Source: Flavobacteriaceae bacterium (GTDB taxonomy: Bacteria; Bacteroidota; Bacteroidia; Flavobacteriales; Flavobacteriaceae). From it: a stretch of 32,000 nucleotides of DNA. The DNA lies in the NCBI GenBank assembly GCA_965224465.1, contig OZ245049.1:270001-302000 (forward strand), read 5' to 3'. Under the pieces are notes generated by a model. The model saw only the letters and a list, made by a program, of their open reading frames with translations. It had not been told where the DNA came from and did no database searches. Positions 327-29,654 of this stretch are shown piece after piece; position 1 is the stretch's first letter; each line of letters opens with the position of its first letter. A program made the translations under genes and the position numbers.

Positions 327-1058
327 ATGAGTGTATCTGATGATATAAAAAGAATTTTATGGCACGAAATGGGACATTTATGTGTCGATACTATAAAGAT
401 AGAAACACATAATAATCTAAAAGTTAACTTATTAAATTTAACTGTTGCTAATGACGGTTTATTTAAATGGAGTGGTTTCGTAGAAATGCTTCCGAGTTTA
501 CCTTTTAAAGATATCCCTATAAATCACTCAATATTAGCATATTCGCTAATTAGTTTACAGGCTGGTTGTGTATTTGAGACTATCTATTTTCAAATTATAA
601 AAGAAAATTCATCAATAAATTTTGGAGATTGTTTTTCTTTTAATAGAGAATGCATTGGGAATGGAGATTGGACAAATTATCATGAAATTTTATCAAAAAT
701 ACGCGAGATCCATCCTGAATTTCGTGGTAAACTTGATTTGAATGGCTATTTGGAAATTGATTTTTCTAGATTAGTAAATATTGCACTTTTCAAGTTGTCA
801 GAATTCATTACAAAAATGAATGAAATAATTGATAATGAAGTTATTAAAATAGAGAAAGACTTTACAGGAAGAGATGGGGCTCATGGAATATATAGCTATA
901 ATTATAGTGGAGATGAGTTAACTGAGTTGATTAATAGAATAATACCATTAATGAATGAATTAGGGTTTAGAGATACTCTAATGGAACTTCATGAGTCATT
1001 TATTAAAAAATTCAGTGATTACATAGACAAATATGACGTAAGGTATAATATTATGTAA
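327..1058 (+). CDS. hypothetical protein with N-terminal HExxH (zinc-metallopeptidase-like) motif
   Basis: 243-aa ORF. HEMGH at residues 13-17 (LWHEMGHLCV). No signal peptide or TM segment. Very AT-rich coding sequence. I recognise no other family signature. Confidence 0.6.
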   Translation: MSVSDDIKRILWHEMGHLCVDTIKIETHNNLKVNLLNLTVANDGLFKWSGFVEMLPSLPFKDIPINHSILAYSLISLQAGCVFETIYFQIIKENSSINFGDCFSFNRECIGNGDWTNYHEILSKIREIHPEFRGKLDLNGYLEIDFSRLVNIALFKLSEFITKMNEIIDNEVIKIEKDFTGRDGAHGIYSYNYSGDELTELINRIIPLMNELGFRDTLMELHESFIKKFSDYIDKYDVRYNIM

Positions 1059-1246
1059 AATAGAATCCCGAGGCTAAACTTAGTCTCATTTAATTTTAGA
1101 TAAAACAATAGGAGAAATAAAAATGCGCACTTCAAATAGTTAGTAATTCGATTCGTTAAGAGTTTCAATTATACAGAGTATTTTCAAAGAATTGATTGAG
1201 AATCACTTCTTTGAAATACCAATAATAAAAAAAGGAAAAAAGACGA

Positions 1247-1536
1247 GTTGAAAGACTAAAGTTAACAAGTGTATAGCACTTTTAAGCAAGGATTATGCAG
1301 TTGGGGAAATTTTATACTCTTGTGGTAATCCACGAGAATGGTGTGAATTTTTTTATAACGTACATTTTATCGAATACGCGATTTTTAATAAGAGCAAAAA
1401 GGTTAACTTTTATTTTGGCGTTGGCAAGCGGCTGGAAATTGTGGTTTAAAAATAATTGCATTAGCAATTTTGTTTTAAGCAAACAATCGAGTGTTTGGCA
1501 GCGGCTATTTTAAATACTATAGAATTATAACTATCA
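1247..1536 (+). repeat. paralogous ~290-bp noncoding element, copy 1 (candidate structured RNA or element 'head')
   Basis: Co-linear nucleotide similarity to 7407-7697 (blocks TTGAAAGAC, CAAGTGTATAG, AAATTTTATACT, TTGGCGTTGGCAAGCG, CAATCGAG, GAATTATAnCTA). The ORF called here (1295-1513) is not conserved in the paralog. Confidence 0.6.
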
Positions 1537-1556
1537 AATACTGATACAAGTTCATA

Positions 1557-2028
1557 AGCCGTAATTTAGTTCACGCTATTCTTGTTTTTTTAAGACGTTC
1601 ATGAATCTCCTAAAGCCGTAATTCTTTTAACATAATATCTGACGATATAAGTCTAAAGACGTTATATCTGATATTATGTGTAAATAGCCTGATAAACGGC
1701 TATACAGAAATTAATGAGCCGTAATTTAGCTCACGCGTTTATATTTTATTGGAATTCATGAATCTCCTAAAGCCGTAATTTCTTTTAACATAATATCTGA
1801 CGATATAAGTCTAAAGACGTTATATCTGATATTATGTGTAAATAGCCTAAAAAACGGCTATACAGAAATTAATAAGCCGTAATTTAGTTCACGCTATTTT
1901 TTTTAAAAAGGAGTTCATAAATCTCCTAAAGTCGATTTCTTTTAACATAATATCTGACGATATAAGTCTAAAGACATTATATCTGATATTATGTAAAATA
2001 GCCGTGAAAAACGGCTATACAGAAATTA
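1557..2028 (+). repeat. tandem array of three ~158-bp units (160/158/154 bp), each with a long imperfect hairpin
   Basis: Units start at AGCCGTAATTTAG (1557, 1717, 1875). They are near-identical except for a ~20-nt T-rich segment after CACGC. Each has the hairpin ACATAATATC..GATATAA..GTC/GAC..TTATATC..GATATTATGT (unit 1: 1630-1679) and a TAGCC-N8-GGCTA stem. No conserved ORF. Confidence 0.85.
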
Positions 2029-2061
2029 CTTTAAATGTACTATAATGTTCTGCGTTATGTT

Positions 2062-2090
2062 ACTTTGCTTGGGTAAAGCAAAGTTTATTT
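2062..2090 (+). terminator. intrinsic terminator downstream of the tandem array
   Basis: ACTTTGCTT (2062-2070) pairs with AAGCAAAGT (2076-2084), a 9-bp stem with a 5-nt loop, followed by TTATTTAT. The minus-strand reading lacks a T-run. Confidence 0.55.
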
Positions 2091-2218
2091 ATCATAATTT
2101 TCTTCAAAAAAATATTTACCAAAAGTTTCTTCTACAATGTTAATGGAACACTTTTTACACGACGACGTAGGAGGGAAGTGTAAAGTGTGTGAAATGGAAA
2201 CAATAGACAATATATTAT

Positions 2219-2890
2219 TTATAAAAACAGCACTTTTTTTACAACATCAAAATAACGAGCGCTAACAGGAATTTTAATATCATTAATAGTTAAATCTTTA
2301 CCAACTAAAGAAGTGACAGCCTTTTTATTAATAATATAAGAACGATGTACTCTCATAAACAATGATTGTGGCAAACTTTCTTCTAAAGACTTTAAAGTTT
2401 GATAACTCATTATTTTTTTACCTTTCATATAAAAAACCACATATTCACTATCGCTTTGTATATATAAAATATCAGTAAATTTTATCTTATGTAAATCATA
2501 ACCAGATTTAATAGTAATGAATTCATTATCGCCAACTTTGATTTTTGATTCTATTTTATTAACTGCTTGTAAAAAACGTTCAAAAGTAATGGGCTTTAAA
2601 AGATAGTCTAACGCATTCAGTTCAAAACCATCTAACGCATATTCAGAATAGGCAGTTGTAAAAATAATTTTAGTACTTGAGGGAATCATTTTAGCAAAGT
2701 CCGTACCTTTTAAATCAGGCATTTGTATGTCTAAAAGAACCACATCAACAACTTCACTATTGAGGATTTCCATTGCATTAATTGGGCTTTCAAATGAACC
2801 AACCAACTCTAAAAAACCAGTTTTATCTACATACATTTTTAGCAATGTTCTTGCTAATTCTTCATCGTCTATAATTACACATTTAAGCAT
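2219..2890 (-). CDS. LytTR/AlgR-family response regulator
   Basis: Receiver domain (IIDDE..., VVLLDIQMPDLKG) plus C-terminal LytTR-type DNA-binding region (FMRVHRSYIINKK). Overlaps the upstream kinase gene by 8 nt. Confidence 0.9.
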   Translation of the reverse strand: MLKCVIIDDEELARTLLKMYVDKTGFLELVGSFESPINAMEILNSEVVDVVLLDIQMPDLKGTDFAKMIPSSTKIIFTTAYSEYALDGFELNALDYLLKPITFERFLQAVNKIESKIKVGDNEFITIKSGYDLHKIKFTDILYIQSDSEYVVFYMKGKKIMSYQTLKSLEESLPQSLFMRVHRSYIINKKAVTSLVGKDLTINDIKIPVSARYFDVVKKVLFL

Positions 2891-3911
2891 CGTTATTAAG
2901 TTTTAATTGTAATCTCACATCAAACACCTCATTACTATCACTTATTTGCAACTGATGCTTTTCGGGATACAAAATACGCAATCTCTTTTTTACATTCTCT
3001 AATCCTATGCCACCAACAGCATCTTTTTCTTTCGGTGTTTTGGGAATGCTGTTTCTTACCGAAAAATTAATTGTGGAAGCATCTGCTTTTAAATCAATGG
3101 TTATAAAACTATCTTTTTGTTTTCCAATAGAACTGTGTTTAAAGGCATTTTCAATAAAAGGAATAAATAACATTGGAGCCAACTTAATAGCATTGTTTTC
3201 AACATTAAAATTAGTTGTAATATTAAAAGGTTTGCTGCTTTTTAAGTTAAACAATCTTATATAATTATTAATATAGTTCACTTCCTTATCTATAGCTACC
3301 AAATTTCGCACACAATCATATAAAACATAACGTAACATTTCTGATAAATAACTAATACTTTCTTGTGTTTTAGGTGAATTTATTACCGATAAACTATAAA
3401 TATTGTTGAGTGCATTAAACAGAAAATGTGGATTTATTTGCGACTTCAATAACTTTAACTCCGTTTGTAATTGTTCATTCTTATTTTGTATCGTTTCTTT
3501 CTCTTTTTCGATGGCATAATAGACACTTTCAATCACAGTTGCAAGAATAAAGGAAAACCCTAGCATTAAGGTGTGATTTATAAAACGTGAAGGTTTATGT
3601 GGTGGCGGAAGTGGCACTGCATTTTCAACAACTAAAATTGGTACTTCTGGTAACGGAAAAATAACTGTAATCAAGAAGGCACAACTTATAGTTAAAATAA
3701 TTCCTAATAGGATGAATTGTAAATGTTTCTTCTTAAACAGCAACTTTGGGGCTAAATACCATATAATTAAAATGATAAAGACGCATTGAACTATAAAAAG
3801 ACAAATAGTTTCTAGTATAAATATAGTTTTTCCTACTTGTGAATTTGCAATAAATATTGCAAAAATTAACCAAAGAACTACTTGAAATAAAATGCGTTTT
3901 TGTCTGTTCAT
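2883..3911 (-). CDS. LytS/His_kinase-type sensor histidine kinase
   Basis: Several N-terminal TM segments, the NPHFLFNALNNI H-box typical of LytS-like kinases, and a C-terminal ATPase region (GGIGLENVKKRL). The ORF track starts at 3938. The ATG at 3909-3911 (MNRQKR...) looks the more plausible start. Confidence 0.85.
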   Translation of the reverse strand: MNRQKRILFQVVLWLIFAIFIANSQVGKTIFILETICLFIVQCVFIILIIWYLAPKLLFKKKHLQFILLGIILTISCAFLITVIFPLPEVPILVVENAVPLPPPHKPSRFINHTLMLGFSFILATVIESVYYAIEKEKETIQNKNEQLQTELKLLKSQINPHFLFNALNNIYSLSVINSPKTQESISYLSEMLRYVLYDCVRNLVAIDKEVNYINNYIRLFNLKSSKPFNITTNFNVENNAIKLAPMLFIPFIENAFKHSSIGKQKDSFITIDLKADASTINFSVRNSIPKTPKEKDAVGGIGLENVKKRLRILYPEKHQLQISDSNEVFDVRLQLKLNNDA

Positions 3912-4101
3912 AGTACAAATAAAGTTAAAAAAAATCAAATGGAATCAAAAATCAGCGATTCAAACAATAGTAATATCTACCCTCAACCGAATATAAAACG
4001 GTATTCACTTAAAAGTTCTTTTCGTTTACTGAAAACCCAAAATAGGCATTAATCTATTGCTCATCTTTGAGGTCATAAACACGAAACAAAATTCTTTTAT
4101 T

Positions 4102-4380
4102 ATGAGACAAAACAGATTTAAAACAGGAATGATTGTAGTGATTTTCTTTTTCTTCGGAATTACAATTTCGCAAGCACAATCTAGCAGACAGAAACCACAA
4201 AAGCCACCAAGGTTTAGCGAACTATTAAAACAAATGGATGCTAACGAAGACAACAAACTTTCAAAAAAAGAAATAAAAGGTTCTTTAAAAAATAATTTTT
4301 CTAAAATTGACTCCAATGAAGATGGGTTTATTACTAAAAAGGAATTTCAAAAAGCCCCAAAACCTAAAAGAACAAGATAG
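4102..4380 (+). CDS. secreted EF-hand calcium-binding protein
   Basis: Signal peptide (MRQNRFKTGMIVVIFFFFGITISQAQ) and two canonical EF-hand loops, DANEDNKLSKKE and DSNEDGFITKKE. The track start at 4057 lies upstream of the signal peptide, so I prefer the internal ATG at 4102. Confidence 0.8.
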   Translation: MRQNRFKTGMIVVIFFFFGITISQAQSSRQKPQKPPRFSELLKQMDANEDNKLSKKEIKGSLKNNFSKIDSNEDGFITKKEFQKAPKPKRTR

Positions 4381-4410
4381 TTTACATAAACAATAAACAA
4401 ATACTTAATT

Positions 4411-5421
4411 ATGAAAAAATCAATTTTAAAAACAACAATAGGTACATTAGTTTTATTAATGGGTCTATTAGTTATATCGTGTTCAAGCGATGATGAAACT
4501 TCTCCAGAAGAAGTAGATACCTCAAGTCATATTTTTAAAGCCGAATTATTAAATTCCGCAAATCTGTTAAGTTCAGTAACATTGGTAGATGCTACTTTAA
4601 CAGACGGAACAACTGCTCAATGCTACAAATTAGTATTCAAAAGTAATCCAGTAGAAGATGGTCCATATTGTCCAGAAACTATTAATGATATTGGTGGAAT
4701 TGGTATTTATGATGGAGCAACAAATCCAGGACTACAAGTTTTAAAGGCAACCTTATGGAATGCTATGGAAGCCGATGGTTATGATATTGTAGATACTAAT
4801 GGTAATATTAATTATAATGACCCAGGAAGTGGAGTTATGCCATCTGGACCAAGTTGTTTAGGGGCAACTCCAAATAATAATTTAGAATTGACGTATTTGA
4901 TTCCTGCTATACCAAAAACAGGTACTTCTGTTGATCAAATTAACGTTGTAGAAAATGTAGGTGTCTCATATAATGGTATTCCTTTGACAGGAAATCCACC
5001 ATCAGTTGTAAATGGCCCTCCAGGAATGGGAGGACCTCCAGGAATGTCGGGAGGTAACATTCCATCTATTGATCCTTGTGGTGGACATATAGACCCATTT
5101 GGCTATTATCATTTGCATTTTGCTCCATCTGAAATGAATAATGTATTAGAAGCACACGATATTAGTGATGTAAGTTGTACAAATTTTACACAAAGTGAAA
5201 TAGCATTTGTTGGTTTTGCAAAGGACGGATATCCTATGTATGCTTCTAAGGACGAAAACGGAACATTACCATCAGATTTAGATGAGTGTCAAGGACATAC
5301 TGCACCTACGGCAGATTATCCTGAAGGAGTATATCATTATCATGCCTCTAATTCATCGGCTCCTAATTTCCCAACTTGTTTAAAAGGAGTATCGGCAGAA
5401 GATTCTTTAACGTATCAATAA
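4411..5421 (+). CDS. YHYH-motif domain lipoprotein
   Basis: Lipobox (LLVISC). Conserved blocks GYYHLHF, AKDGYPMY, LDECQGH and YHYHA match the uncharacterised YHYH protein family. Paralog of 6170-7072. Confidence 0.8.
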   Translation: MKKSILKTTIGTLVLLMGLLVISCSSDDETSPEEVDTSSHIFKAELLNSANLLSSVTLVDATLTDGTTAQCYKLVFKSNPVEDGPYCPETINDIGGIGIYDGATNPGLQVLKATLWNAMEADGYDIVDTNGNINYNDPGSGVMPSGPSCLGATPNNNLELTYLIPAIPKTGTSVDQINVVENVGVSYNGIPLTGNPPSVVNGPPGMGGPPGMSGGNIPSIDPCGGHIDPFGYYHLHFAPSEMNNVLEAHDISDVSCTNFTQSEIAFVGFAKDGYPMYASKDENGTLPSDLDECQGHTAPTADYPEGVYHYHASNSSAPNFPTCLKGVSAEDSLTYQ

Positions 5422-5427
5422 AAAAAG

Positions 5428-6066
5428 ATGAAAAAATTAATTTTAATAGTAGCATTGGTATTTGCAGTTTGCAATGCCAATGCTCATAATCCAGAAACAG
5501 CATCAGTTTATGTAAAGCCAATTAACGGAATTTGGGTAATGCAATTGTCGTTTTCGCAAACAGGTGTACATAATGCACTCACTAAATCTTATACAGATAT
5601 TGATTGGAATACGATATCAACTAATGAATACAAAACAAAATTTATTAGTTATTTAAAGGAGCATCTCGATTTAGATGTCGATGGTCAACATATTGCAATA
5701 ACTTCAGGAGGTATTAAACTAGGAAGTCATCAAACAGATGTAAAACTTTTGTTGCCTGATTTTCCAAATGAATTTAAAAGCGTAACAGCAAATTTTGATA
5801 TTCTTAATGAAAACTCAAATCAAAATACAGTGGTTAGTTTTCAGAATGGTGAAAAATCAGTTAGAAAAATATTGAATAATAAAAACGGCTTTTTAATTAG
5901 TTTTGATAATAGCGTTCAAGGTTTCAACTTGATTGATAATAAAACAAAAAGCAAATTTAATTATTTGTATGTGATTTTTATAGTAGGTGTTATTTGTTTA
6001 GGAGTCTATTCGCTTTTTATTTATAGAAAAAGAAAAGAGTCGACACCAAATTTGGTAATACAATAA
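5428..6066 (+). CDS. hypothetical secreted protein with C-terminal membrane anchor
   Basis: Signal peptide ending ANA|H, so the predicted mature N-terminus is His. Single C-terminal TM (YLYVIFIVGVICLGVYSLFIY) followed by RKRK. The gene starts 7 nt after the upstream stop, so it is probably operonic. Confidence 0.7.
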   Translation: MKKLILIVALVFAVCNANAHNPETASVYVKPINGIWVMQLSFSQTGVHNALTKSYTDIDWNTISTNEYKTKFISYLKEHLDLDVDGQHIAITSGGIKLGSHQTDVKLLLPDFPNEFKSVTANFDILNENSNQNTVVSFQNGEKSVRKILNNKNGFLISFDNSVQGFNLIDNKTKSKFNYLYVIFIVGVICLGVYSLFIYRKRKESTPNLVIQ

Positions 6067-6169
6067 TTAATGATGAGATAAAACGAGAAAATAATTTTCA
6101 GTAACTTTATGATTATGAATGTGTGCAATTATGAAAACATCTGAAAATGTTAACTTTTAAAACAAAAAA

Positions 6170-7072
6170 ATGAAAAATTATCTATATTTAGCAATAACCA
6201 TAGTGATAGTAGGTTGTAATTCTCATACGAGTAAGAAAAGTTCAAAAACTGAATTAAAAACAACTAATCTCGCAGAATTAAATTTCACTAAAAATTACGA
6301 AATCATTAGTAAAGAATTTAAAACTGAAACGTATGTTACAGTTAATGCTACTAATAGAATTATGAAAACCAATGGTTTGCCAAATCATAAAACTGGAATT
6401 TTCCCTAATGAAGGAAATCCTAATACTATTTCGGCTCAAAATTTAACGTATAAATTTCCTGTGAATCCTAAATTTAGTAAAGAATCTAAATGGGCAAGAG
6501 AACCAGGTGTTGCGCTAAATGGTATTAAATTTGAACCAGAAACTGCTGAAAGATTTGTTTGTGAAACAGGAGAAGTATACAAAATTGAAGCTTTTCAAGA
6601 ATTAGTAGATATTGGACTTGATTTTAATCGTGCACACGTTCAACCAACAGGAGCTTATCATTATCACGGAGTTCCTACTGAATTAATAAAAGTACTAGAT
6701 AAAGGAAAAGATATTATTTTGATTGGATATGCAAAAGATGGCTTTCCAATTTATCATTCTAAAAGCGGAAAATATAAACCAAGCTATCAATTGGTTAAAG
6801 ATTTAAGAACTGGAGATATATGTTCTTACAAAAACCCTAAATTAACCCTAAATGAAAGTTTAAAAGACACCAAACCAGATGGAACTTTTGTTTCAGATTG
6901 GGAATACGTAAACGGATTAGGCGATTTGGATGAATGCAATGGAATAGAATTGAACGGAGAATACTCTTATTTTGTCACGAATGAATATCCATATATGAGT
7001 AGGTGTTTAAAAGGTGAATTTATTGAAGAAGCTCCAAAAGGACCACCTCCAGGTCAACATCCTCATAAATAA
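6170..7072 (+). CDS. YHYH-motif domain lipoprotein (paralog)
   Basis: Lipobox (IVIVGC). Blocks GAYHYHG, AKDGFPIY and LDECNG shared with 4411-5421. Pro/Gly/His-rich C-terminus (PKGPPPGQHPHK). Confidence 0.8.
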   Translation: MKNYLYLAITIVIVGCNSHTSKKSSKTELKTTNLAELNFTKNYEIISKEFKTETYVTVNATNRIMKTNGLPNHKTGIFPNEGNPNTISAQNLTYKFPVNPKFSKESKWAREPGVALNGIKFEPETAERFVCETGEVYKIEAFQELVDIGLDFNRAHVQPTGAYHYHGVPTELIKVLDKGKDIILIGYAKDGFPIYHSKSGKYKPSYQLVKDLRTGDICSYKNPKLTLNESLKDTKPDGTFVSDWEYVNGLGDLDECNGIELNGEYSYFVTNEYPYMSRCLKGEFIEEAPKGPPPGQHPHK

Positions 7073-7406
7073 GATATAAATTAAAAATTCTTAGGTAGTT
7101 TTTTAAAACGACCTCATAAAACTTTGGTTAAACAATAGGAGAGTGGAGCGTCTATATTTTAGGGATTTAGTAACTAATATTTTTGGTTTTTCTAAATATG
7201 AAAGCAAGTTATTTATAGTATTGGTTTGTTACAATGTTTCCTGAAATATAGCGTAACGAACCGTAATTGTTTCCAAAGTTTTTGTGCAGTCTTGATTTTT
7301 TTATTTCTTTTTTTATTAAGAAAAAAAGATAAGAATGAAAAGATTGAGAGTTCAAAAGTTGAATTTCTATTTTACATAATATTAATAGTTACAATTTAAA
7401 AAAGTT

Positions 7407-7697
7407 CAATTGAAAGACGAAACGAGCAAGTGTATAGAAATTTTAAAGCGTAGATAATGCGGTTGAAAATTTTATACTGTTGCGTAAAGTTTACTAAATG
7501 TTAATGAGATTTTTTTACAACGAGAAGATCAATGCAATTCCTGAATTTAATTAGAAGCTAAAAGGTTTTGCTTTTTTTGGCGTTGGCAAGCGATGGATAA
7601 TTGTGTTTAAAAAAATTACTGCGACAGCATAATTATTTTTAAAAAGCAATCGAGCGTTTGCGAGCGGCAATTTTACATAATGACGAATTATAGCTAC
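7407..7697 (+). repeat. paralogous ~290-bp noncoding element, copy 2
   Basis: Same ordered sequence blocks and nearly the same length as 1247-1536. No ORF of 60 aa or more is called here. Confidence 0.6.
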
Positions 7698-7849
7698 AAA
7701 TGTATAAACGGAAAGTTTCTGAGAATCGCGTATTTAAAAATACTTAAAACCATTGTACAGAATATTAGATTTAAACGTACTATTAAAACACTAATATTTG
7801 ATGACCCAAGTAATACGGTTTATTATGTGTACAGAACATTCTGGGATAT

Positions 7850-7922
7850 TTAACATAATATAGAATTATAGCTATCTAATTTTAATGAAATGGATTTGTA
7901 CTATAATTTACATTATGTTAAA
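7850..7922 (+). repeat. long hairpin homologous to the hairpin of the 1557-2028 tandem units
   Basis: TTAACATAAT (7850-7859) pairs with ATTATGTTAA (7913-7922). AATTATAG (7864-7871) pairs with CTATAATT (7901-7908). The flanks TTAACATAATAT...ATTATGT(G)TAAATAG match the tandem-unit hairpin, but the interior differs. Confidence 0.5.
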
Positions 7923-8451
7923 TAGAAATAGTTACATAACATATGCTATCCTTTTGTTCGAAATCTTAAACGTTTGAAAACGGATACTGTGTTTTTGAGA
8001 ATCAGATATTATGGACCACACTGCGTATTTATTAATCTATAAGATTCTCAGATCGATAGTTATTCAATATATAAAATCCTGTCTACGTTTACATAGTTAC
8101 AACGAATAGATAATCCCTACGGATTACAACATCTTAGAATTATATTAACTATAAAGAAAGCAATTAAGTTCATAGATGTATAATACAAACTAAAATGATC
8201 AGTATAAATTATTTTTGTACGTTCTAGTGTTGGTGAAAAATAATTCTAGTACTAAGCACTAAACCGTCTCAGTTGGAAATTTATTTGGGATTAATACAAC
8301 AATCGCCAATGTCTATATCAATTGATAACTTATTAGTTATTGACTATGTGGATCAAAAATGCACAAGAATTTAGCCATTATCTGCATTTCTTCTATTGGA
8401 TGTCAATTAACAAAATTAAAACCCGCATACTAACAGTTTAGTGAGTGGCAG

Positions 8452-8634
8452 TTATTGCTCAATACTTTCTACTTGAAAACAGGTACATTCACCTTCTTGG
8501 TAGTGCACAGAAACCTGGATTGGATTACAGCAAACCTCACAGTCCTCTATATAAACCTGTTCCCTTATAGAAGGATCTAAAAGCATACTTATTTGTTCGT
8601 TACAATAAGGGCAAAAAAAGGGATGTTCTTCCAT
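8452..8634 (-). CDS. CPXCG-motif cysteine-rich (zinc-ribbon-like) small protein
   Basis: CPYC ... CEVCC cysteine pairs in a protein of about 60 aa, as in the CPXCG family. The start at MEEHPFF (8634) is preferred over the track start at 8655. Confidence 0.65.
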   Translation of the reverse strand: MEEHPFFCPYCNEQISMLLDPSIREQVYIEDCEVCCNPIQVSVHYQEGECTCFQVESIEQ

Positions 8635-8911
8635 AATAAATGATAATCTAACCATAAAGATACATTATTTTAAAGAAGCCTCTATACGAATCAACTATAT
8701 TATACAGCTGATCAAGTAATTAAAAAAAACACAATCAAATCAATGTTCAATAAATGTAACTACTACAACTGTAAAACCTTTATATAAGCATCTTGAACAC
8801 GCATGATTTTGGTTTAAAATTGGTATACCTAGGTGCTTTCTGACAGTATAACAATAAGAATCATTCAAAAAAAACTAACTTAGGAACAAAACCATTATTT
8901 AATTTACAAGT

Positions 8912-9489: not shown

Positions 9490-10689
9490 CTATTTAAAAA
9501 CCCGATACCATAGATATATTAATAAAGACAGTCCTCCACATATAGAAAACCCAACAAACATGGGCAATGCAGTCGTATGGATAAAACTTCCTATAAGTAT
9601 GCTAATTGGTACAGCGAGCATTGTAGCAATAAAACCGGTAACCGCCGCCCCTATTCCAGCAATATGTCCTATGGGTTCCATCATTAGAGCACGTGTATTT
9701 CCAAAAATAAATCCTAGCATAAAAAATTGAAGTCCAAAAAAAACGATAAGAATCACCACAGGTGGATTTTCTGATTGATAAAACAAAATGATATAGAGAA
9801 CAGAAATTAGAAAAAAACCAAGCAATGCAGTTCTCAAAAGTTTTTCCATTCCTAATTTTACAACAAGTTTTCCGTTGATAAATGTGGCACTTCCTACGGT
9901 CATAGCAAGACATGCAAATATAAAAGGAAAGGCATCTACCAATCCGTATTGTTGTTGAAAAACCTGCTGTGAGGCACTTAAATAGACCATAAATGCCCCC
10001 GTTATTAATGCTGATACAAAGGTAAATGCGACTGTTTGTCTGTGTTTAAAAACTTCACGAGTTCCTTGTAGAATAACTCCTAGAGTAAACGGAACTCTGT
10101 TTGCTGCCAAAAGGGTTTCTGGTTGTCGCTTTGAAAACCAAAAAGCAATGATTACTGCAGCAATACATTGTATATAAAAAATGGCTTGCCAGGAAAAGGC
10201 ATCTAAAATAAATTTCCCTAATGCGGGTGCTATGGTAGGAATTATTAAAAAAACAACGGTTACAAAAGACATTATTTTAGCCATATAATTCCCTTTATAA
10301 GTATCTCTAATAATAGAAATACTTACGGTTCTAGAAGCCGAAAGCCCGATTCCTTGTAGGATACGACCCGCAATCATTATTTCTAGATTCTTAGAAAAGA
10401 TACATATTAAACTAGCTATTATGTATACCAAAATCCCTATGTAAACAACCTTTTTACGTCCAATCGTATCCGATAACGGCCCAAAAAACAATTGTCCAAC
10501 TCCTAAGCCAAAAAAAATCATTGTAATTAGTAATTGTCCATCATTAACATGGCGAATGCCAATGTCGGCACCTATTTCTTGGAGTCCGGGTAACAATGCA
10601 TCTATTGATAAGGCAACCATTGCCATTAAGGATGCCATTAATGCGATAAATTCTAATTGGGATATTTTTTTCGTATTCATTGACTGCAA
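9490..10689 (-). CDS. MFS transporter, Bcr/CflA-like drug efflux family
   Basis: About 12 predicted TM helices and an MFS motif-A-like GPLSDTIGRKK between TM2 and TM3. Size and pattern are typical of Bcr/CflA exporters. Confidence 0.85.
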   Translation of the reverse strand: MQSMNTKKISQLEFIALMASLMAMVALSIDALLPGLQEIGADIGIRHVNDGQLLITMIFFGLGVGQLFFGPLSDTIGRKKVVYIGILVYIIASLICIFSKNLEIMIAGRILQGIGLSASRTVSISIIRDTYKGNYMAKIMSFVTVVFLIIPTIAPALGKFILDAFSWQAIFYIQCIAAVIIAFWFSKRQPETLLAANRVPFTLGVILQGTREVFKHRQTVAFTFVSALITGAFMVYLSASQQVFQQQYGLVDAFPFIFACLAMTVGSATFINGKLVVKLGMEKLLRTALLGFFLISVLYIILFYQSENPPVVILIVFFGLQFFMLGFIFGNTRALMMEPIGHIAGIGAAVTGFIATMLAVPISILIGSFIHTTALPMFVGFSICGGLSLLIYLWYRVFK

Positions 10690-10710
10690 AAATAAGTCTA
10701 TTTATTTTAG

Positions 10711-10741
10711 TTTGCCTTGTAGAATTATCTTAATATATTTG
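10711..10741 (+). promoter_or_regulatory. Bacteroidota sigma-A type promoter (-33 TTTG / -7 TAnnTTTG) for the YitT-family gene
   Basis: TTTG at 10711-10714 and TATATTTG at 10734-10741, 19 nt apart. The -7 box ends 11 nt before the ATG at 10753. Confidence 0.45.
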
Positions 10742-10752
10742 TCCTTAAAAAA

Positions 10753-11598
10753 ATGAAAAAAGAAGCCCTTAATTATTTGTTTATTAGCCTTGGTTGTGGT
10801 TTAATGGCGCTAGGTATCGTTGGTTTTTTAAGTCCTAATAATATCGCCACTGGTGGTATTGCGGGTTTATCAATTATATTGCATTCTATATTCAATATTC
10901 CAATGGGACTTCTTTTTGGCTTGATGAATGTCCCCTTATTATTAGTGAGTATTAAATATTTAGGAAAATATTTTGCTCTTAAATCCGGTATTGCGATTGT
11001 ATTGATTGGTTTTTTTATAGATGTATTGTCCAAAATTATTCATTTAGAAGCGTTGAGTACAGATCCTTTACTCGCTACTTTGTATGGAGGTGTCGTAATT
11101 GGTGCAGGGCTTGGGTTTATTTTTAAAGGTGGTGGATCTGCTGGTGGAGGAACAATTATTGCGCGTATTGTTACGTCAAAAACAAGTCTAAAAACAAGCA
11201 CTGTTATCTTGTTTTTAGATATTATTGTTGTACTAATTGCCGGAATAGTATTTAATAGTATAGAATTGGCATTATGGAGCATGATAAGTATTTTTACAGC
11301 TGCCAAAATGATCGACACAATACTTACAGGACGACCAAACGAAATTATTGTTCATATTTCTTCTTATAAGAAATTGGCTCCATTGGGCAGCTTGATTCAA
11401 CAAAAAATTGGGGTTTCTGGTACTACTGTCCGCGGAAAAGATATGGCTCAAAAAGAGGTTAAGGACATTATTTTTGTAGTAGTTCCAAAAAACAGACTGA
11501 ATTCTCTAGAAAATTTAGTCTCCAATTACGATGCCAATGCAAAAATGATTGTGATGGAAGCCTCTCAGATGGTTGGTGCACTTAATAGTTTGAAATAA
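10753..11598 (+). CDS. YitT-family membrane protein
   Basis: Gly-rich multi-TM N-terminal region plus a soluble C-terminal domain (IIVHISS...VVVPKNRL), as in YitT/DUF2179 proteins. Confidence 0.75.
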   Translation: MKKEALNYLFISLGCGLMALGIVGFLSPNNIATGGIAGLSIILHSIFNIPMGLLFGLMNVPLLLVSIKYLGKYFALKSGIAIVLIGFFIDVLSKIIHLEALSTDPLLATLYGGVVIGAGLGFIFKGGGSAGGGTIIARIVTSKTSLKTSTVILFLDIIVVLIAGIVFNSIELALWSMISIFTAAKMIDTILTGRPNEIIVHISSYKKLAPLGSLIQQKIGVSGTTVRGKDMAQKEVKDIIFVVVPKNRLNSLENLVSNYDANAKMIVMEASQMVGALNSLK

Positions 11599-13825: not shown

Positions 13826-13831
13826 ATATAT

Positions 13832-13924
13832 AACCTCTGGGCAAGCCCCTGAGGCATCAAAAAGAAAAAAACCTTAATCATTTCGATGTAAGTATCAGGA
13901 ATTAAACCCACTGATGGGATTAAA
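13832..13924 (+). repeat. 93-bp REP/MITE-like element, copy 1
   Basis: CCTCTGGGCAAGCCCCTGAGG hairpin, then CATCAAAAAGAAAAAAACCTTAATCATTTCGATG, then GAATTAAACCCACTGATGGGATTAAA hairpin. Related to 14008-14096, 18378-18469 (reverse orientation) and 29545-29638. Confidence 0.85.
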
Positions 13925-13941
13925 TATACTGATTTTGTTAT

Positions 13942-13972: not shown

Positions 13973-14007
13973 GTACTCCTACCCTACTCTTATTCTACAA
14001 AGTCAAT

Positions 14008-14096
14008 ATCCTCTGGGCAAGCCTCTGAGGCATCAAAAAGAAAAAAATCTTAATCATTTCGATGTAAGCATATGGGAATTAAACCTCCCTGTGAGT
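14008..14096 (+). repeat. REP/MITE-like element, copy 2
   Basis: Same element as 13832-13924. The 3' hairpin is degenerate (AAACCTCCCTGTGAG). Confidence 0.8.
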
Positions 14097-18377: not shown

Positions 18378-18469
18378 TTTAATCCCACCAGTGGGTTTAA
18401 TTCCCAGATGTTTGCTTCGAAATGATTAAGGTTTTTTCTTTTTCAGGCCTCGTGGGCTTGCCCCGAGCT
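18378..18469 (-). repeat. REP/MITE-like element, copy 3 (reverse orientation)
   Basis: Its reverse complement matches 29545-29638, including the CTCGGGGCAAGCCCACGAG and AAACCCACTGGTGGGATTAAA hairpins. Confidence 0.85.
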
Positions 18470-18660
18470 TATTGGCTATGGTCATTAAAATAGAGTGCAA
18501 TAAGTATAGCAAGACCATAAAAAAAGGGAAGCCCTTTTGCGATCGGTTTTCCAGTAACATCACTGCCAGAGAAATTTTGTTTCTTAAAAAAAAGGAGCAT
18601 CCATGTAAGAATACTTAGATATACAATAATACGTAAGCGTACGGTAAAGTACACCCTTGA

Positions 18661-25910: not shown

Positions 25911-26093
25911 TCAATTCACGAATGCTGTCATACCAAATACATTTCCAAGTGACGGTTTAGAAATGGAATTATTTTTTGTTATAGCTAGGCGGAAAACTTG
26001 AGGATAGCCTTTGCTATCGTTCCTTTTTTCAACAATGCTAGTACGTAGTACAAACAATTTATATCGGTCATTTTGAATTGTAGTTGGTGGCAC
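25911..26093 (-). pseudogene. possible N-terminal (Arm-type DNA-binding) fragment of a tyrosine integrase
   Basis: YKLFVLRTSIVEKRNDSKGYPQVFRLAITKNN loosely resembles the N-terminal beta-rich Arm domain of Bacteroidota integrases. The ORF stops after 60 aa and there is no room for a catalytic domain before the helicase gene. The DNA at 25979-26088 is repeated at 27974-28108. Confidence 0.25.
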
Positions 26094-26334
26094 AAATAGA
26101 ACCGTGGTAGCCAGGAGTTAAACCTGCTTTTCCAAAAACCACAAAGATTTACACCAAGACCATCGAAATAAATAATAAAAAAATAGTTGGACCGCTTGAA
26201 AATTTAAAAAATTTGAATACTTTTAACAAAAAACTCACATAACCCGAGACTATTATAATATAACGGAAATAACGTTACGTTTTGGAAGTTTATTGATGAT
26301 ATATGGGTGTTGGCCACAACCCAAACAATAATCA

Positions 26335-26571: not shown

Positions 26572-27655
26572 TTCTATGATGGTTATATTTTCAAAACAGA
26601 AAAGTAGGAAAACCTACCTTTCTTGTCTTGATGGATATGTATCTTACGGTCTCAAATCTCGAAAAAAGAAGTTGTATGAAACACATCACCCAAGCGCAAA
26701 GATACACAATTTGTTGCATGTTAAAACAAGGTTATAAACAGGTTGAGATAGCAGCTGCTATAGGAAAAGACAAGTCTGTTATTAGCAAAGAGATTAAGCG
26801 TAATTCAGACAAAAGAAATGGAGTTTACAAGCATGAATTAGCCCAAAAAAAGTATGCTAAACGTCATAAAGAAAAGCCTAAAAGAAAACGCTTTACAGAA
26901 GATATTCAACAAGCAATAGAGTTGTTATTGCGAGACGATTATAGTCCTGAGCAAGTAGTTGGTGTCCTAAAAAAACAAGGTAAAGAAACGGTGTCTATTG
27001 AGCGTATATATCAGCATATTAGGGAAGACAAGAGGAATGATGGTGATTTACATACACACCTTCGCAGACAGGGAAGGAGATATAGAAAACGTGGCTCATC
27101 AAAGGATTCTAGAGGGGTTATAAAGAATCGTATTAGTATAGAACAACGCCCTGAAGTTGTTGAACAAAGAAATCGATTTGGAGATTTAGAGGTCGATTTA
27201 ATCATAGGTAAAAACCATAATCAAGCCATACTTACCGTAAATGATAGAGCTTTTGGAATGCTTAAAATGAAAAAAGTAAGCTCTAAAGAAGCAGTTGTTG
27301 TCACTAAAGCTATCAATGAAATATTAGAAGACTGGAAGCCTTATCTACATACTATAACAGCTGATAATGGAAAAGAATTTGCAGGCCATGAGCAGGTTGC
27401 AGAAAATTTATGTATTGATTACTTTTTTGCGCATCCATATCACTCTTGGGAAAGAGGATCTAACGAAAATTTAAATGGTTTGATTAGACAATATTTTGCC
27501 AAAGGAAGTGACTTTACAAACCTAACAGATCAAAGAATCAAAGAGGTAGAAACAAAATTAAATAACAGACCTAGGAAGAGACATAAATATCAAAACCCTA
27601 TATTTGTAATGGAACAATTATTATTTAACTAAAAGTTGCGTTTGTGACTTGAATT
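26539..27655 (+). mobile_element. IS30-family insertion sequence
   Basis: Terminal inverted repeats AATTCAACTAATAAACGCAACTTTT (left, from 26539) and the reverse complement of the right end AATTCAAGTCACAAACGCAACTTTT (ending 27655). The outer AATT could instead be a 4-bp target duplication, giving an element of 26543-27651. Single transposase gene. Confidence 0.85.
26676..27632 (+). CDS. IS30-family DDE transposase
   Basis: N-terminal HTH (MKHITQAQRYTI...EIAAAIGKDKSVISKEIKRN) and DDE blocks DLEVDLI, ITADNGKEF and SWERGSNENLNGLIRQY. The track start at 26628 is probably too far upstream. Confidence 0.9.
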   Translation: MKHITQAQRYTICCMLKQGYKQVEIAAAIGKDKSVISKEIKRNSDKRNGVYKHELAQKKYAKRHKEKPKRKRFTEDIQQAIELLLRDDYSPEQVVGVLKKQGKETVSIERIYQHIREDKRNDGDLHTHLRRQGRRYRKRGSSKDSRGVIKNRISIEQRPEVVEQRNRFGDLEVDLIIGKNHNQAILTVNDRAFGMLKMKKVSSKEAVVVTKAINEILEDWKPYLHTITADNGKEFAGHEQVAENLCIDYFFAHPYHSWERGSNENLNGLIRQYFAKGSDFTNLTDQRIKEVETKLNNRPRKRHKYQNPIFVMEQLLFN

Positions 27656-27973: not shown

Positions 27974-28108
27974 TTATAGCTAGGTGAAAAATGGAAGGAT
28001 AGCCATTAATTTGCTTACTGAGCCTTTGCTGAAGTATCATTCTGTTTTTTAACAACGCCAGCACATAAAACAAACTATTTATATCGATCATTTTGGATTG
28101 TAGTTGGT
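27974..28108. repeat. diverged copy of the 25979-26088 segment
   Basis: Shared blocks TTATAGCTAGG, GGATAGCC, CCTTTGCT and ATTTATATCG(G/A)TCATTTTG(A/G)ATTGTAGTTGGT. The minus-strand frame reads IPTTIQNDRYK*, compared with PPTTIQNDRYKLF in copy A. Confidence 0.7.
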
Positions 28109-28386: not shown

Positions 28387-28519
28387 CGGATTTGAAATCC
28401 GTGCCCACAAAGTGCATCACATAAGGCTGCTCATGCAAAGCTTAAAAAACACATTAGATATTTGTGTATTATTTATGGGTTAGTTGTTGTGTATGAGGGA
28501 TGCACGGATTTCAAATCCG
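28387..28519. repeat. inverted pair of perfect 15-nt palindromes (CGGATTTGAAATCCG / CGGATTTCAAATCCG)
   Basis: CGGATTTGAAATCCGTGC at 28387-28404, and its reverse complement GCACGGATTTCAAATCCG at 28502-28519, bracket about 97 bp. Confidence 0.75.
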
Positions 28520-28524
28520 CGCGA

Positions 28525-29073
28525 TCGGGAAATAAAGAGGATAATGGAATTATATTAGATTTAAGAAATTACCCTAGAAACCTTGGTTTGAAAGATTTTT
28601 CTAAGTTTTTGTATCCTGAAAAAAAAGAATTTATTAAAGTACTACTCCCTTTAAAAGGAAATCCTTCCTTTGGGGAATATAATGCAGAGGCTCCTTTAAA
28701 AATTATCTCCAACCCATTTAAAGTTGGAAAGAAAAATTCTAATTATTATAAAGGAAAAATAGTCTTATTAGTAAATAGACGCACTGGGAGTATGTCTGAA
28801 TATTATGGAATGGCAATACAACAATCGCCAAATTGTATTACTATAGGAGAGCAAACAATGGGTGCCGTAATGAATATTCACTCGGTAATATTACCTGACA
28901 AACAAGCGTTTTATTTTACAGGTATGGGAGCTTTTTATCCAAATGGAGAAGGTGTGCAAAGGAAAGGTCTACGTATAGATCATAACATAATAGAAAGTGC
29001 AACTAATTATAATCCTAAATTATATATTGAGAAAGCAGTAGCCATTATTCAAAATGATATTGCTAATAACTAA
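28525..29073 (+). pseudogene. 5'-truncated S41-family (C-terminal processing) peptidase
   Basis: GIILDLRNYPRN, VNRRTGSMSEYY (Ser-nucleophile region) and IGEQTMG match the C-terminal half of S41 peptidases. No PDZ or N-terminal part is present. The called N-terminus (from 28462) is translated from the palindromic repeat. Confidence 0.6.
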
Positions 29074-29323: not shown

Positions 29324-29476
29324 GCATGGTATGTCAAAAACACCTTAGGACATGCCTCTACTCAGACAACAGCCATTTACACTAAAACTATCGAAATAAA
29401 TACGGGACCTCTTAAAATTTTAAAAAAATTAGATATCTTTAACAAAAATACCAATTTACCCCCATCCAATTTATAG
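29324..29476 (+). pseudogene. C-terminal remnant of a tyrosine recombinase/integrase
   Basis: AWYVKNTLGHASTQTTAIYTKT matches the box II end (LGH-x-s-x-x-TT-x-IYt) that contains the catalytic Tyr. The frame is closed by TAA at 29300-29302, so upstream catalytic residues are absent. Confidence 0.55.
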
Positions 29477-29544
29477 GTATAACGGATATACCCTCAACTT
29501 TAAGGTTGTTATTTTGGATATAAGGATGTTGGCTTATAAATAAT

Positions 29545-29638
29545 AACCTCGGGGAAAGCCCACGAGGTATCAAAAAGAAAAAAATCTTAATCATTTCGAT
29601 GCAAGCATCGGAGAATTAAACCCACTGGTGGGATTAAA
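29545..29638 (+). repeat. REP/MITE-like element, copy 4
   Basis: CCTCGGGGAAAGCCCACGAGG hairpin, a conserved A-rich core, and the AAACCCACTGGTGGGATTAAA hairpin. Confidence 0.85.
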
Positions 29639-29654
29639 AATAACATATCTTAAA

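Follow-up and report, generated by a model that had tools for sequence, protein, structure and literature searches.

The two look-alike non-coding segments at 1247-1536 and 7407-7697 of a 32,000-nt stretch of Flavobacteriaceae DNA (contig OZ245049.1; the whole stretch is referred to as the window) are copies of a conserved, folded, gene-free module that sits beside the chromosome dimer-resolution site (dif) in marine Flavobacteriaceae. The module appears to bracket foreign gene blocks, some of which carry anti-phage defence genes, and we infer that these were inserted there by the XerC/XerD recombinases of the cell itself. We found no prior description of this module.

Two paralogous cores within larger units

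The first-pass annotation had described the two segments as colinear non-coding paralogs conserved at the nucleotide level, and this observation was confirmed. The listed blocks align in the same order, and over 1247-1536 and 7407-7697 identity is 192/296 (64.9%), against a mean of 34% and a maximum of 42.6% for 30 shuffles. A profile built from homologs hits the window only at 1234-1533 (E=1e-63) and 7395-7705 (E=2e-57). The 72-aa ORF at 1295-1513 exists and the matching ATG at 7457 stops after 15 codons, as had been noted, while across 111 homologous cores the median longest ATG-ORF is 18 aa on either strand, so the region is non-coding and a hidden small protein in the core was rejected. 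No tRNA or tmRNA was found, and there were no Rfam hits in the window at gathering thresholds (tmRNA, RNase P, SRP, 6S, riboswitches, HEARO, group II introns and others), while searches of the two intergenic gaps at E<=10 gave only chance-level hits at E>=0.35.

The interpretation offered with that observation was only partly supported. The segments are indeed under selection at the nucleic-acid level, match no described RNA family or IS end, carry a structure supported by covariation, and are conserved outside this strain, the last being a point that had been set as a test beforehand. In contrast, the suggested recent duplication is not supported, as the two copies are only 65-67% identical and each is closer to copies in other genera (copy 2 is 95% identical to a Bizionia copy), and a free-standing ncRNA gene is not the best description, although the fold could still act as RNA. 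It had also been missed that the 290 bp is the core of a unit of 0.8-1.1 kb built around Xer recombination sites (about 1051-2065 and 7078-7923; by blastn depth, conservation covers about 1040-2200 and 7100-7930). The window contains the following features:

1051..1061 (+), left boundary of unit 1: XerD-arm half-site TTATGTAAAAT followed by AGAAT, overlapping the stop codon of ORF 327-1058
1062..1233 (+), non-coding upstream module of unit 1, homologous to 7096-7340
1234..1533 (+), core copy 1, with hairpin H1 at 1260-1329 and a small hairpin plus the long hairpin H3 at 1393-1511
1507..1535 (-), reverse-oriented dif-like site after core 1, ATTTTAAATAC-TATAGAA-TTATAACTATC, with a degenerate XerD arm
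1548..2061 (+), three tandem repeats of about 158 nt, each with an inverted pair of XerD-arm-like motifs (for example 1625-1642 / 1667-1684) and a small GC hairpin
2035..2065 (+), variant Xer site (attL-like): dif-type XerC arm ATGTACTATAA, 9-nt spacer TGTTCTGCG, divergent XerD-side arm TTATGTTACTT
2066..2200 (+), conserved non-coding head following the variant site, with a terminator-like hairpin at 2062-2084
2219..7072, cargo: LytTR response regulator (2219-2890, -), histidine kinase (2883-3938, -), YHYH protein (4411-5421), 212-aa ORF (5428-6066), YHYH protein (6170-7072)
7078..7088 (+), left boundary of unit 2: degenerate remnant of the XerD half-site (AAATTAAAAAT, 7/11 matches)
7096..7340 (+), non-coding upstream module of unit 2
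7369..7379 (-), site A: extra reverse-oriented XerD arm (ATTTTACATAA on the + strand)
7395..7705 (+), core copy 2, with H1 at 7421-7489 and the small hairpin plus H3 at 7556-7674
7670..7698 (-), site B: reverse-oriented dif-like site with a 7-nt spacer (TGTAGCTATAA-TTCGTCA-TTATGTAAAAT on the - strand), forming the 3' end of the core, its T-rich arm directly following H3
7848..7876 (-), site C: second reverse-oriented dif-like site with a 7-nt spacer (GATAGCTATAA-TTCTATA-TTATGTTAAAT on the - strand)
7896..7923 (+), canonical dif: XerC arm TTGTACTATAA, 6-nt spacer TTTACA, XerD arm TTATGTTAAAT

The dif site was a zero-mismatch pattern hit and the only canonical site in the window, and it matches the published predicted dif sites of Gramella forsetii (XerC arm) and Cytophaga hutchinsonii (spacer and XerD arm). 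The consensus right end of the unit equals the Gramella forsetii site, for which the predicted position coincides with the GC-skew shift point (Kono 2011), whereas in the 32-kb window GC skew was uninformative, as it follows gene strand only. The left boundary of unit 1 is an exact XerD arm, but that of unit 2 is weak and was inferred from colinearity in the unit alignment only. The upstream modules align with each other and are covered by 30-47 loci (unit 1) and 66-84 loci (unit 2) in blastn comparisons, and the head by about 40 loci. In the head conservation at the nucleotide level dominates, although one unresolved micro-ORF frame recurs. The site after core 1 has a spacer and XerC arm of the site C type (1503-1539 is 84% identical to 7844-7880 at site C, but only 70% to 7666-7702 at site B), and thus looks like a site B x site C deletion product. 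Segments related to the 158-nt repeats, the origin of which is not resolved, occur in two other loci of our collection (L008 and L107). Site A is present in only some relatives, and with its flanks forms a 24-nt inverted repeat with the dif region (7363-7386 / 7906-7929, 88% complementary).

Conservation, architecture and folding in other genomes

The core occurs in over 119 loci from about 45 genera, and is present once in most genomes, with 1-3 copies per genome overall. Complete genomes that carry the unit include NZ_CP138991.1, NZ_CP183215.1, NZ_CP187138.1, NZ_CP151839.1, NZ_CP138989.1, NZ_CP170198.1 and NZ_CP074074.1. Homologs were collected with an exact 22-nt pattern, which biases the sample towards conserved copies, an effect partly offset by 16 pattern-free hits. 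A few pattern hits in non-Flavobacteriaceae records (L001, L015, L021, L062, L089, L099, L111) were set aside as chance matches or misbinned contigs, although L021, labelled Pseudomonadota, does carry a true copy that is 92.7% identical to copy 1 and is probably a misbinned Flavobacteriaceae contig. Conserved synteny does not explain the distribution, as the largest cluster of neighbouring genes covers 14 of 119 loci. The flanking genes are most often convergent, which, like the position of the identical Gramella 28-mer at the skew shift point, gives indirect support for a location at the replication terminus.

The order of elements is fixed: half-site, upstream module, core, site B, site C, and then either dif or the variant site. 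Of 102 cores, 87 have site B, 84 have site C, and 65-69 have a canonical dif at +220 to +580, always in the same orientation, with the core on the XerC-arm side (69 homologous sites were listed). In 34 loci conservation begins exactly at the XerD half-site and the sequence to its left is unrelated, while conservation ends about 10 nt after dif, and the endpoints of 836 homology blocks pile up at these two sites. XerD arms inside the unit are constant, whereas the XerD arm of dif varies A/T/C, which fits a boundary between element and host inside dif. In every two-copy genome, and in every multi-copy array, only the downstream copy has a canonical dif. In many genera, 19 upstream-type cores end in the same variant site plus head, and none of these has a canonical dif. 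The variant site and dif are both in + orientation in the window, and this pairing is seen across genera.

Cargo between paired units is unrelated between genomes, and Pfam searches of the window cargo and of cargo from other arrays found no recombinase, replicase or relaxase. The cargo includes AbiLi+AbiLii and Upx defence genes. Partner copies in one genome are 57-79% identical, against 90-100% to copies in other genera, and 39 cores from 26 or more genera are linked at >=92% identity. The whole unit is 85-100% identical between distant genera and drops to background outside, with the neighbouring MFS gene being only 66-69% identical. Loci L004 and L033, from two species, share 3,580 bp at 99.7% identity, ending 2 nt after dif, but this was the only near-identical cross-species pair found, and no excised circle, empty site or strain polymorphism was observed for the cassette of the window itself.

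RNAalifold on raw MAFFT alignments of the whole core or the 5' domain gave no structure, because indel-rich variable parts were misaligned, and this was solved with gap-free seeds and covariance models. Model R1 (small hairpin plus H3) hits 1393-1511 and 7556-7674, and model R2 (H1) hits 1260-1329 and 7421-7489. The H3 domain is 97.7% paired (31-53% in slid controls), with double-sided changes in 21 of 38 pairs and 201 cells, which was reached in 0 of 500 shuffles, and H1 is 98.7% paired (35-55% in slid controls), with 124 compensatory cells. Conserved G.U pairs make the fold plus-strand specific. A sigma-70 scan and a scan of 87 cores for the Bacteroidota promoter motif TAnnTTTG gave no conserved promoter.

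Interpretation of the array at dif

In our preferred reading, which we hold with moderate confidence, the window contains an array of Xer-exploiting (IMEX-like) cassettes: unit 1, without a functional dif and ending in the variant site, then about 5 kb of cargo, then unit 2, then the canonical dif, each unit being a copy of a gene-free backbone of about 0.75-1.1 kb. The analysis itself establishes the identity of dif and of the other Xer-type sites, the fixed order of elements, the restriction of canonical dif to the downstream copy, the variable cargo without recombinase, the greater distance between copies within a genome than to copies in other genera, and the two hairpins; what follows is inference, including the activity of Xer recombinases on any of these sites. 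The segment from the spacer of the variant site to the XerC arm of dif (about 2046-7906: head, cargo and unit 2) would have entered as a circle through host XerC/XerD recombination at dif, a circle carrying the junction XerC arm-TGTTCTGCG-TTATGTAAC joined to the cargo end. Exchange on the XerC side would recreate a canonical dif on the right, and leave on the left an attL with a non-homologous 9-nt spacer and divergent XerD arm, which FtsK/XerD-driven dimer resolution could not recombine with dif, so that the insert would be stable. The non-coding unit would be the shared backbone of these cassettes and move horizontally between genera.

Mobility is thus inferred from comparative patterns, and several points speak against it. 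The left boundary of each unit lacks the intact chromosomal XerC arm that simple integration at dif predicts, as it is a XerD arm with, at best, a TATAA remnant and a 2-3-nt spacer, which is unexplained. A 9-nt spacer lies outside the usual 6-8 bp range for XerCD sites (PMC5357621), so activity of the variant site is putative. The element is absent from 2.9 million viral contigs, 50,697 phage records and 72,556 plasmids, searched with BLAST and three independent patterns (hits L120-L130 are chance hits), so no extrachromosomal form is documented, and high cross-genus identity could in principle reflect extreme constraint.

The core (H1, a variable middle, a small hairpin, and the 87-nt H3 abutting site B) is inferred to act in cis as a folded single strand. 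We slightly favour RNA, because conserved G.U pairs and near-neutral GC/GU alternation are RNA-like, and it could be a host-enzyme-dependent primer or regulatory RNA of the excised circle, comparable to ColE1 RNA II/I next to cer. Folded ssDNA (an sso-like or attP-like element) is the less likely option. The reverse-oriented sites B and C would serve as extra XerCD-binding, accessory sites. A more far-reaching version, which is possible but which we consider less likely than not, is that of a protein-free mobile platform: a structured unit of about 750 nt, bounded by Xer sites, that uses only host enzymes (XerC/XerD, and possibly RNA polymerase or primase acting on its folded core) to excise, persist transiently and re-insert at dif, carrying promoter-less gene cassettes, including anti-phage systems such as AbiL and Upx, between genera of Flavobacteriaceae, in effect an integron-like cassette system run by the dimer-resolution machinery.

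If the preferred reading is right, this is the first IMEX-type system in Flavobacteriaceae that is not a phage, and the first in which unrelated cargos share a conserved, structured, gene-free backbone. It would give a precise, searchable signature (half-site, core, site B, site C, then dif or the 9-nt-spacer variant) for the dif region and for a hotspot of accessory and defence genes in an ecologically important marine family, provide two hairpins with strong covariation support that are missing from Rfam, and raise the question of how a folded RNA or ssDNA element cooperates with Xer recombination. It should also improve annotation of replication termini and genomic islands in these genomes, and may offer a natural landing pad for genetic tools in Flavobacteriaceae.

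Alternative readings and related systems

The most serious alternative, although unlikely, is that the unit is a vertically inherited, extremely constrained cis-acting accessory region of dif, working like the ~180-bp accessory sequences of cer and psi or as a device presenting XerD to FtsK arriving from the XerC side, with the extra copies being local by-products of rearrangements at the terminus and not the backbone of a mobile element. Its constant position on the XerC-arm side, as for cer accessory sequences (PMC5357621), the two conserved extra XerCD-type sites, its single occurrence in most genomes and its absence from phage, plasmid and viral collections would fit, but double-stranded protein-binding DNA does not explain strand-specific compensatory changes with conserved G.U pairs (covariation implies a single-stranded fold, which cer/psi-type sequences do not require), distinct types that are 57-79% identical within a genome are each 90-95% identical across genera, the whole unit, spacers included, is 87-100% identical between distant genera, and the 99.7% block ending at dif and the variable cargo indicate exchange. 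That the core is a free-standing structured ncRNA gene family with incidental synteny to dif, as the first-pass annotation suggested, is improbable: covariation and G.U usage are RNA-like, the GC-rich base of H3 followed by UAUUUUA resembles an intrinsic terminator, and the usually co-oriented upstream gene makes read-through transcription possible, but there is no conserved promoter and no Rfam family, the 3' end of the core is itself a Xer-type site, conservation runs far beyond the core from the XerD half-site to dif, and most cores without a canonical dif end in the variant Xer site.

We consider it very doubtful that the unit is a relic or satellite of ssDNA phages integrating at dif (CTXphi-like, PhiCjT23-like or microvirus-like), with the hairpins as a folded attP or a replication or packaging origin. 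Such phages do integrate at dif in Flavobacterium and Bacteroidales (PMC9719478, PMC3091885), the fold is strand specific, and site C is a near-perfect inverted copy of dif 20-45 nt away, as in CTXphi attP (PMC5357621). However, no Rep or capsid gene occurs in any cargo examined, the viral collections searched lack the unit, and near-neutral GC/GU alternation fits RNA better than DNA hairpins; the XerD arms of site C and dif were identical in 25 of 45 cases against 24.3 expected, which in this test of low power gives no support to pairing. A MITE, REPIN or IS end is effectively refuted: the 24-nt inverted repeat around copy 2 and the hairpin pairs of a short motif in the 158-nt repeats first suggested it, but these repeats are Xer arms, copies are few and linked, no target-site duplications or associated transposase were found in the neighbourhoods, and the element is always tied to dif. 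A DnaA-box-like string in copy 1, which raised the idea of an oriC, is not conserved in the family consensus, and a hammerhead-like CUGACGAG and possible K-turn in H3, considered by eye, were not supported by Rfam or by the sequence pattern.

Of the described systems, the IMEXs CTXphi, VGJphi, TLCphi, the gonococcal genetic island (GGI) and EludIMEX-1 have no recombinase of their own, are inserted at dif between directly repeated dif-type sites and can form arrays, and in CTXphi, VGJphi, TLCphi and GGI the attP-derived junction keeps the XerC arm but has a non-homologous spacer or XerD side, preventing FtsK-driven loss (PMC5357621). Known IMEXs are phages, satellites or islands with their own genes and share no common backbone, whereas here, in a Bacteroidota host and on sequence evidence alone, unrelated cargos share one structured backbone of about 0.75 kb that also occurs alone next to dif in most genomes, with a 9-nt spacer and two extra reverse-oriented sites with 7-nt spacers. 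The pdif (XerC/D-XerD/C) modules of Acinetobacter plasmids are likewise small accessory-gene modules without recombinases, bounded by Xer-type sites and spread between replicons, but are plasmid-borne, bounded by inverted 28-bp sites only, and lack a long conserved structured non-coding region, while the present units are chromosomal, at dif, and arrayed in direct orientation. The cer/psi sites share a Xer core site with a long non-coding region on the XerC-arm side, and ColE1-type replicons show that a purely non-coding structured-RNA region can act using host enzymes alone, but these are plasmid settings, no PepA, ArgR or ArcA sites or sequence similarity were examined or found, and a role in replication or recombination control is conjecture. 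The dif-integrating ssDNA prophages of Bacteroidota (PhiCjT23-like; Alpavirinae BMV1-7) share the phylum, the integration site, the use of host XerC/D and dif-like direct repeats at both ends, but carry Rep and capsid genes and are 4.5-8 kb long (PMC9719478, PMC3091885), whereas the present unit has no genes. Finally, integron gene cassettes are also promoter-less, with unrelated, mostly co-oriented cargo separated by a recurring structured, strand-specific recombination element (attC), but here the recombinase would be host XerCD instead of an integron integrase, the recurring element is 750 nt instead of 60-140 nt, and the array sits at dif.

Extent and distribution of the non-coding paralogs

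We first compared the two segments which the first-pass annotation had named as co-linear non-coding paralogs of about 290 bp (1247-1536 and 7407-7697), and this observation was confirmed. The segments align colinearly with the listed blocks, and over these coordinates they are 64.9% identical, against a mean of 34% and a maximum of 42.6% for shuffled controls. A profile built from homologs hits the window only at 1234-1533 (E=1e-63) and 7395-7705 (E=2e-57). The 72-aa ORF described for copy 1 is present, and the matching ATG in copy 2 stops after 15 codons as had been stated, while across 111 homologous cores the median longest ORF is 18 aa on either strand, so the sequence is non-coding. No tRNA or tmRNA was found, no Rfam family reached its gathering score, and only chance-level Rfam hits appeared at E<=10. 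The annotation had also counted the space downstream of copy 2 as ORF-free, whereas 8452-8655 on the minus strand encodes a 67-aa Cys-rich CPXCG zinc-ribbon protein (Pfam PF14255, E=1.6e-15).

We expanded this search to species-representative genomes using a two-block pattern taken from the core (22 specified bases), which matched over 119 stretches. Nearly all of these are from Flavobacteriaceae, and they represent about 45 genera. One contig labelled as a Pseudomonadota MAG (locus L021, 1777-2333) carries a true copy of the unit, 92.7% identical to window copy 1, next to an MFS gene like those of Flavobacteriaceae, and is probably misbinned. As the pattern biases the sample, nhmmer and covariance models were also used, and recovered 16 further full or partial copies which lack the pattern. 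When conservation was mapped back on the window, the 290 bp proved to be only the best-conserved part of a longer ORF-poor unit, and the interpretation given in the first-pass annotation is supported in part. The neighbouring genes are not conserved, with the largest neighbour cluster covering 14 of 119 loci, and the element is therefore not a leader or trailer of a particular gene. The MFS transporter-YitT gene pair next to the dif unit (window 9490-11598) is conserved in Polaribacter, Tenacibaculum and Cochleicola (compared in loci L068, L090, L057, L027, L106 and L119), but relative to the unit it is inverted compared with the window, which suggests an inversion with one end at or near dif. 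The features of the two units are as follows:

about 1040-2200: unit of copy 1
1234-1533: core of copy 1
1548-2061: three tandem repeats of about 158 nt, between core 1 and the variant Xer site
2035-2065: variant Xer site of copy 1, followed by the non-coding 'head' to about 2200
2137-2265 (+): recurring micro-ORF frame in the head region
about 7100-7930: unit of copy 2
7395-7705: core of copy 2
7896-7923 (forward): canonical dif

Xer sites and the organisation of the units

A 16-nt motif recurs in both orientations throughout both units, and is the XerD arm of dif. Six of the seven exact XerD-arm matches in the 32-kb window lie inside the two units. The units are built around Xer sites, and the sequence identifies the dif at which copy 2 ends as the chromosomal one. 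Positions 7896-7923 read TTGTACTATAA-TTTACA-TTATGTTAAAT, while the supplement of Kono et al. 2011 (PMC3025954) predicts TTGTACTATAATTTATATTATGTAAAAT for Gramella forsetii, which is exactly the consensus right end of the unit, and TTGTTATATAATTTACATTATGTTAAAT for Cytophaga hutchinsonii. Of 102 cores with enough downstream sequence, 87 have a reverse-oriented dif-like site with a 7-nt spacer that forms the 3' end of the core itself (site B), 84 have a second such site 100-170 nt further on (site C), and 65-69 have a canonical forward dif with a 6-nt spacer at +220 to +580. An additional reverse-oriented XerD arm (site A) and an upstream module were also recognised. Conservation begins at a XerD half-site, TTATGTAAAAT-AGAATCTCGATG..., with unrelated sequence to its left in 34 loci, and ends about 10 nt after dif, and the endpoints of 836 cross-locus homology blocks pile up at these two positions. 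Sharp boundaries are expected for any constrained element at this divergence, and hence the sharpness itself was not counted as evidence of mobility.

Several genomes have two units and one has three, lying 4-8 kb apart, and in every such case only the downstream unit is followed by a canonical dif. Nineteen cores, including window copy 1, instead end in a conserved variant site, TTTGTACTATAA-TGTTCTGCG-TTATGTAAC, consisting of a dif XerC arm, a 9-nt spacer and a divergent XerD-side arm, followed by a conserved non-coding head of about 150 nt; none of these 19 has a canonical dif. In the head of the window and the equivalent regions of about 12 loci (L008, L013, L078, L096, L109, L112 and others) a micro-ORF frame, M(L)MEHFL.DDVGGK..VC.M, recurs, which could be a tiny peptide or simply nucleotide-level conservation. 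Each of the three 158-nt repeats of unit 1 carries an inverted pair of XerD-arm-like motifs and a hairpin (TAGCC-N-GGCTA) which reads as a terminator on the minus strand, and related segments lie just upstream of dif in L010, L076, L107 and L114.

The genes between units differ from genome to genome. In this window they encode a LytTR two-component system plus YHYH proteins, whereas the cargo contains a complete AbiLi/AbiLii system in a Maribacter MAG (E=3e-86 and 4e-28), a Upx-like protein in Lacinutrix (E=5e-45), an HD-CE/HATPase protein in Thalassobellus, and DUF3800 and a weak HEPN/AbiV-like match in Bizionia. With the AbiLi+AbiLii abortive-infection pair and the Upx-like defence protein as cargo between dif units (L061 4196-6155, from the Maribacter MAG array; L078 558-4352, minus strand), the dif-proximal array is a defence-gene hotspot in some genomes. 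None of the cargo encodes a recombinase, replicase or relaxase. This is the layout expected after a circle carrying a dif-like attP integrates at dif by exchange on the XerC side: the right junction would again be a canonical dif, while the left junction (attL) would carry the non-homologous spacer and XerD side of the element, so that FtsK-activated dimer resolution could not recombine it with dif. Known IMEXs use the same logic (PMC5357621), and dif-integrating ssDNA prophages are already known in Flavobacterium and Bacteroidales (PMC9719478, PMC3091885). However, the left half-site lacks the intact XerC arm that simple integration predicts, a 9-nt spacer is unusual for XerCD, and no extrachromosomal copy was found in phage, plasmid or viral collections. 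While the identification of the paralogs as parts of dif-flanking units is very secure, the cassette-insertion mechanism is well supported but inferred, any recombination activity of the sites is inferred from sequence alone, and the function of the folded core is a hypothesis.

Signs of horizontal movement and the predicted fold of the core

The two copies in one genome are never each other's nearest relatives, with partner identity being 57-79%, against 90-100% to copies in other genera. Window copy 2 is 95% identical to a Bizionia copy and 90% to a Polaribacter copy, but only 67% to window copy 1, and one cluster linked at >=92% identity contains 39 cores from 26 or more genera. Between distant genera the whole unit, including spacers in several pairs, is 85-100% identical, with identity falling to background at the boundaries, whereas the neighbouring MFS gene is only 66-69% identical between the window and Polaribacter or Tenacibaculum. 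Croceitalea rosinachiae (L004 1-3580) and a MAG array (L033 1217-4795), representatives of two species, share 3,580 bp of several cargo genes plus the unit at 99.7% identity, with the homology ending 2 nt after dif and unrelated flanks beyond. The XerD arms inside the unit are almost invariably TTATGTAAAAT, while the XerD arm of dif varies (A/T/C at position 7), and the element/host boundary therefore falls inside dif, as an attR junction predicts. Local Xer-type events are also visible: in L061 homology breaks exactly at the XerD-arm/spacer junction of site B, and window copy 1 carries a hybrid of site B and site C, as if the B-C interval had been deleted.

Next we built covariance models from gap-free seeds and used these to realign all copies. 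The 3' domain, consisting of a small hairpin plus an 87-nt hairpin (H3), is 97.7% paired over 3,913 cells, against 31-53% when the partners are slid, and 21 of 38 pairs and 201 cells show double-sided compensatory changes, which is reached by 0 of 500 shuffles. The 5' hairpin H1 is 98.7% paired, against 35-55% slid, with 124 compensatory cells, and its loop accepts insertions of up to about 65 nt. Partial copies of the 5' module (H1 region) lie in tandem directly before full cores (L061 6485-6595, L020 6592-6699, L060 7348-7460 and L035 1905-2016), and correspond to long insertions in the H1 loop. An invariant U.G, a conserved G.U and roughly 50:50 GC/GU alternations would be A.C mismatches on the other strand, and the fold therefore belongs to the plus strand as a single strand. 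While this excludes a purely double-stranded protein-binding role for the core, it does not decide between RNA and ssDNA: RNA is favoured by the near-neutral G.U usage and by the GC-rich base of H3 followed by UAUUUUA, which is terminator-like, whereas the absence of a conserved Bacteroidota promoter in 87 cores speaks against it. A CTX-like folded attP made of site C and dif gets no support from covariation.

Comparison with known systems and other repeats in the window

Judged by sequence alone, the system works most like an IMEX array, and it passes the sequence-level tests for one, with no recombinase, insertion at dif, and direct dif-type repeats of which one is degenerate. It differs from every described IMEX and from pdif modules in having a shared, gene-free, structured backbone of about 750 nt, in having two extra reverse-oriented Xer-type sites, and in that its host is in a different phylum, and we found no description of it in the searchable literature.

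Two further sets of non-coding repeats were present in the window. Members of a second family of about 80-110 nt lie at 13830-13928, 14006-14085 and 29543-29642 (plus strand) and at 18378-18480 (inverted), each with a GC-rich hairpin (CCTCTGGGCAAGCCCCTGAGG), an A-rich tract and TTAATCATTTCGATG. The copies are 83-93% identical and without an Rfam hit, and one lies directly upstream of the 686-aa ORF at 29628. The third set consists of colinear non-coding paralogs (25979-26245, 27974-28108 and 29350-29461; 74-82% identical), in the gaps upstream of ORFs 26628-27632, 28462-29073 and 29628-31688.
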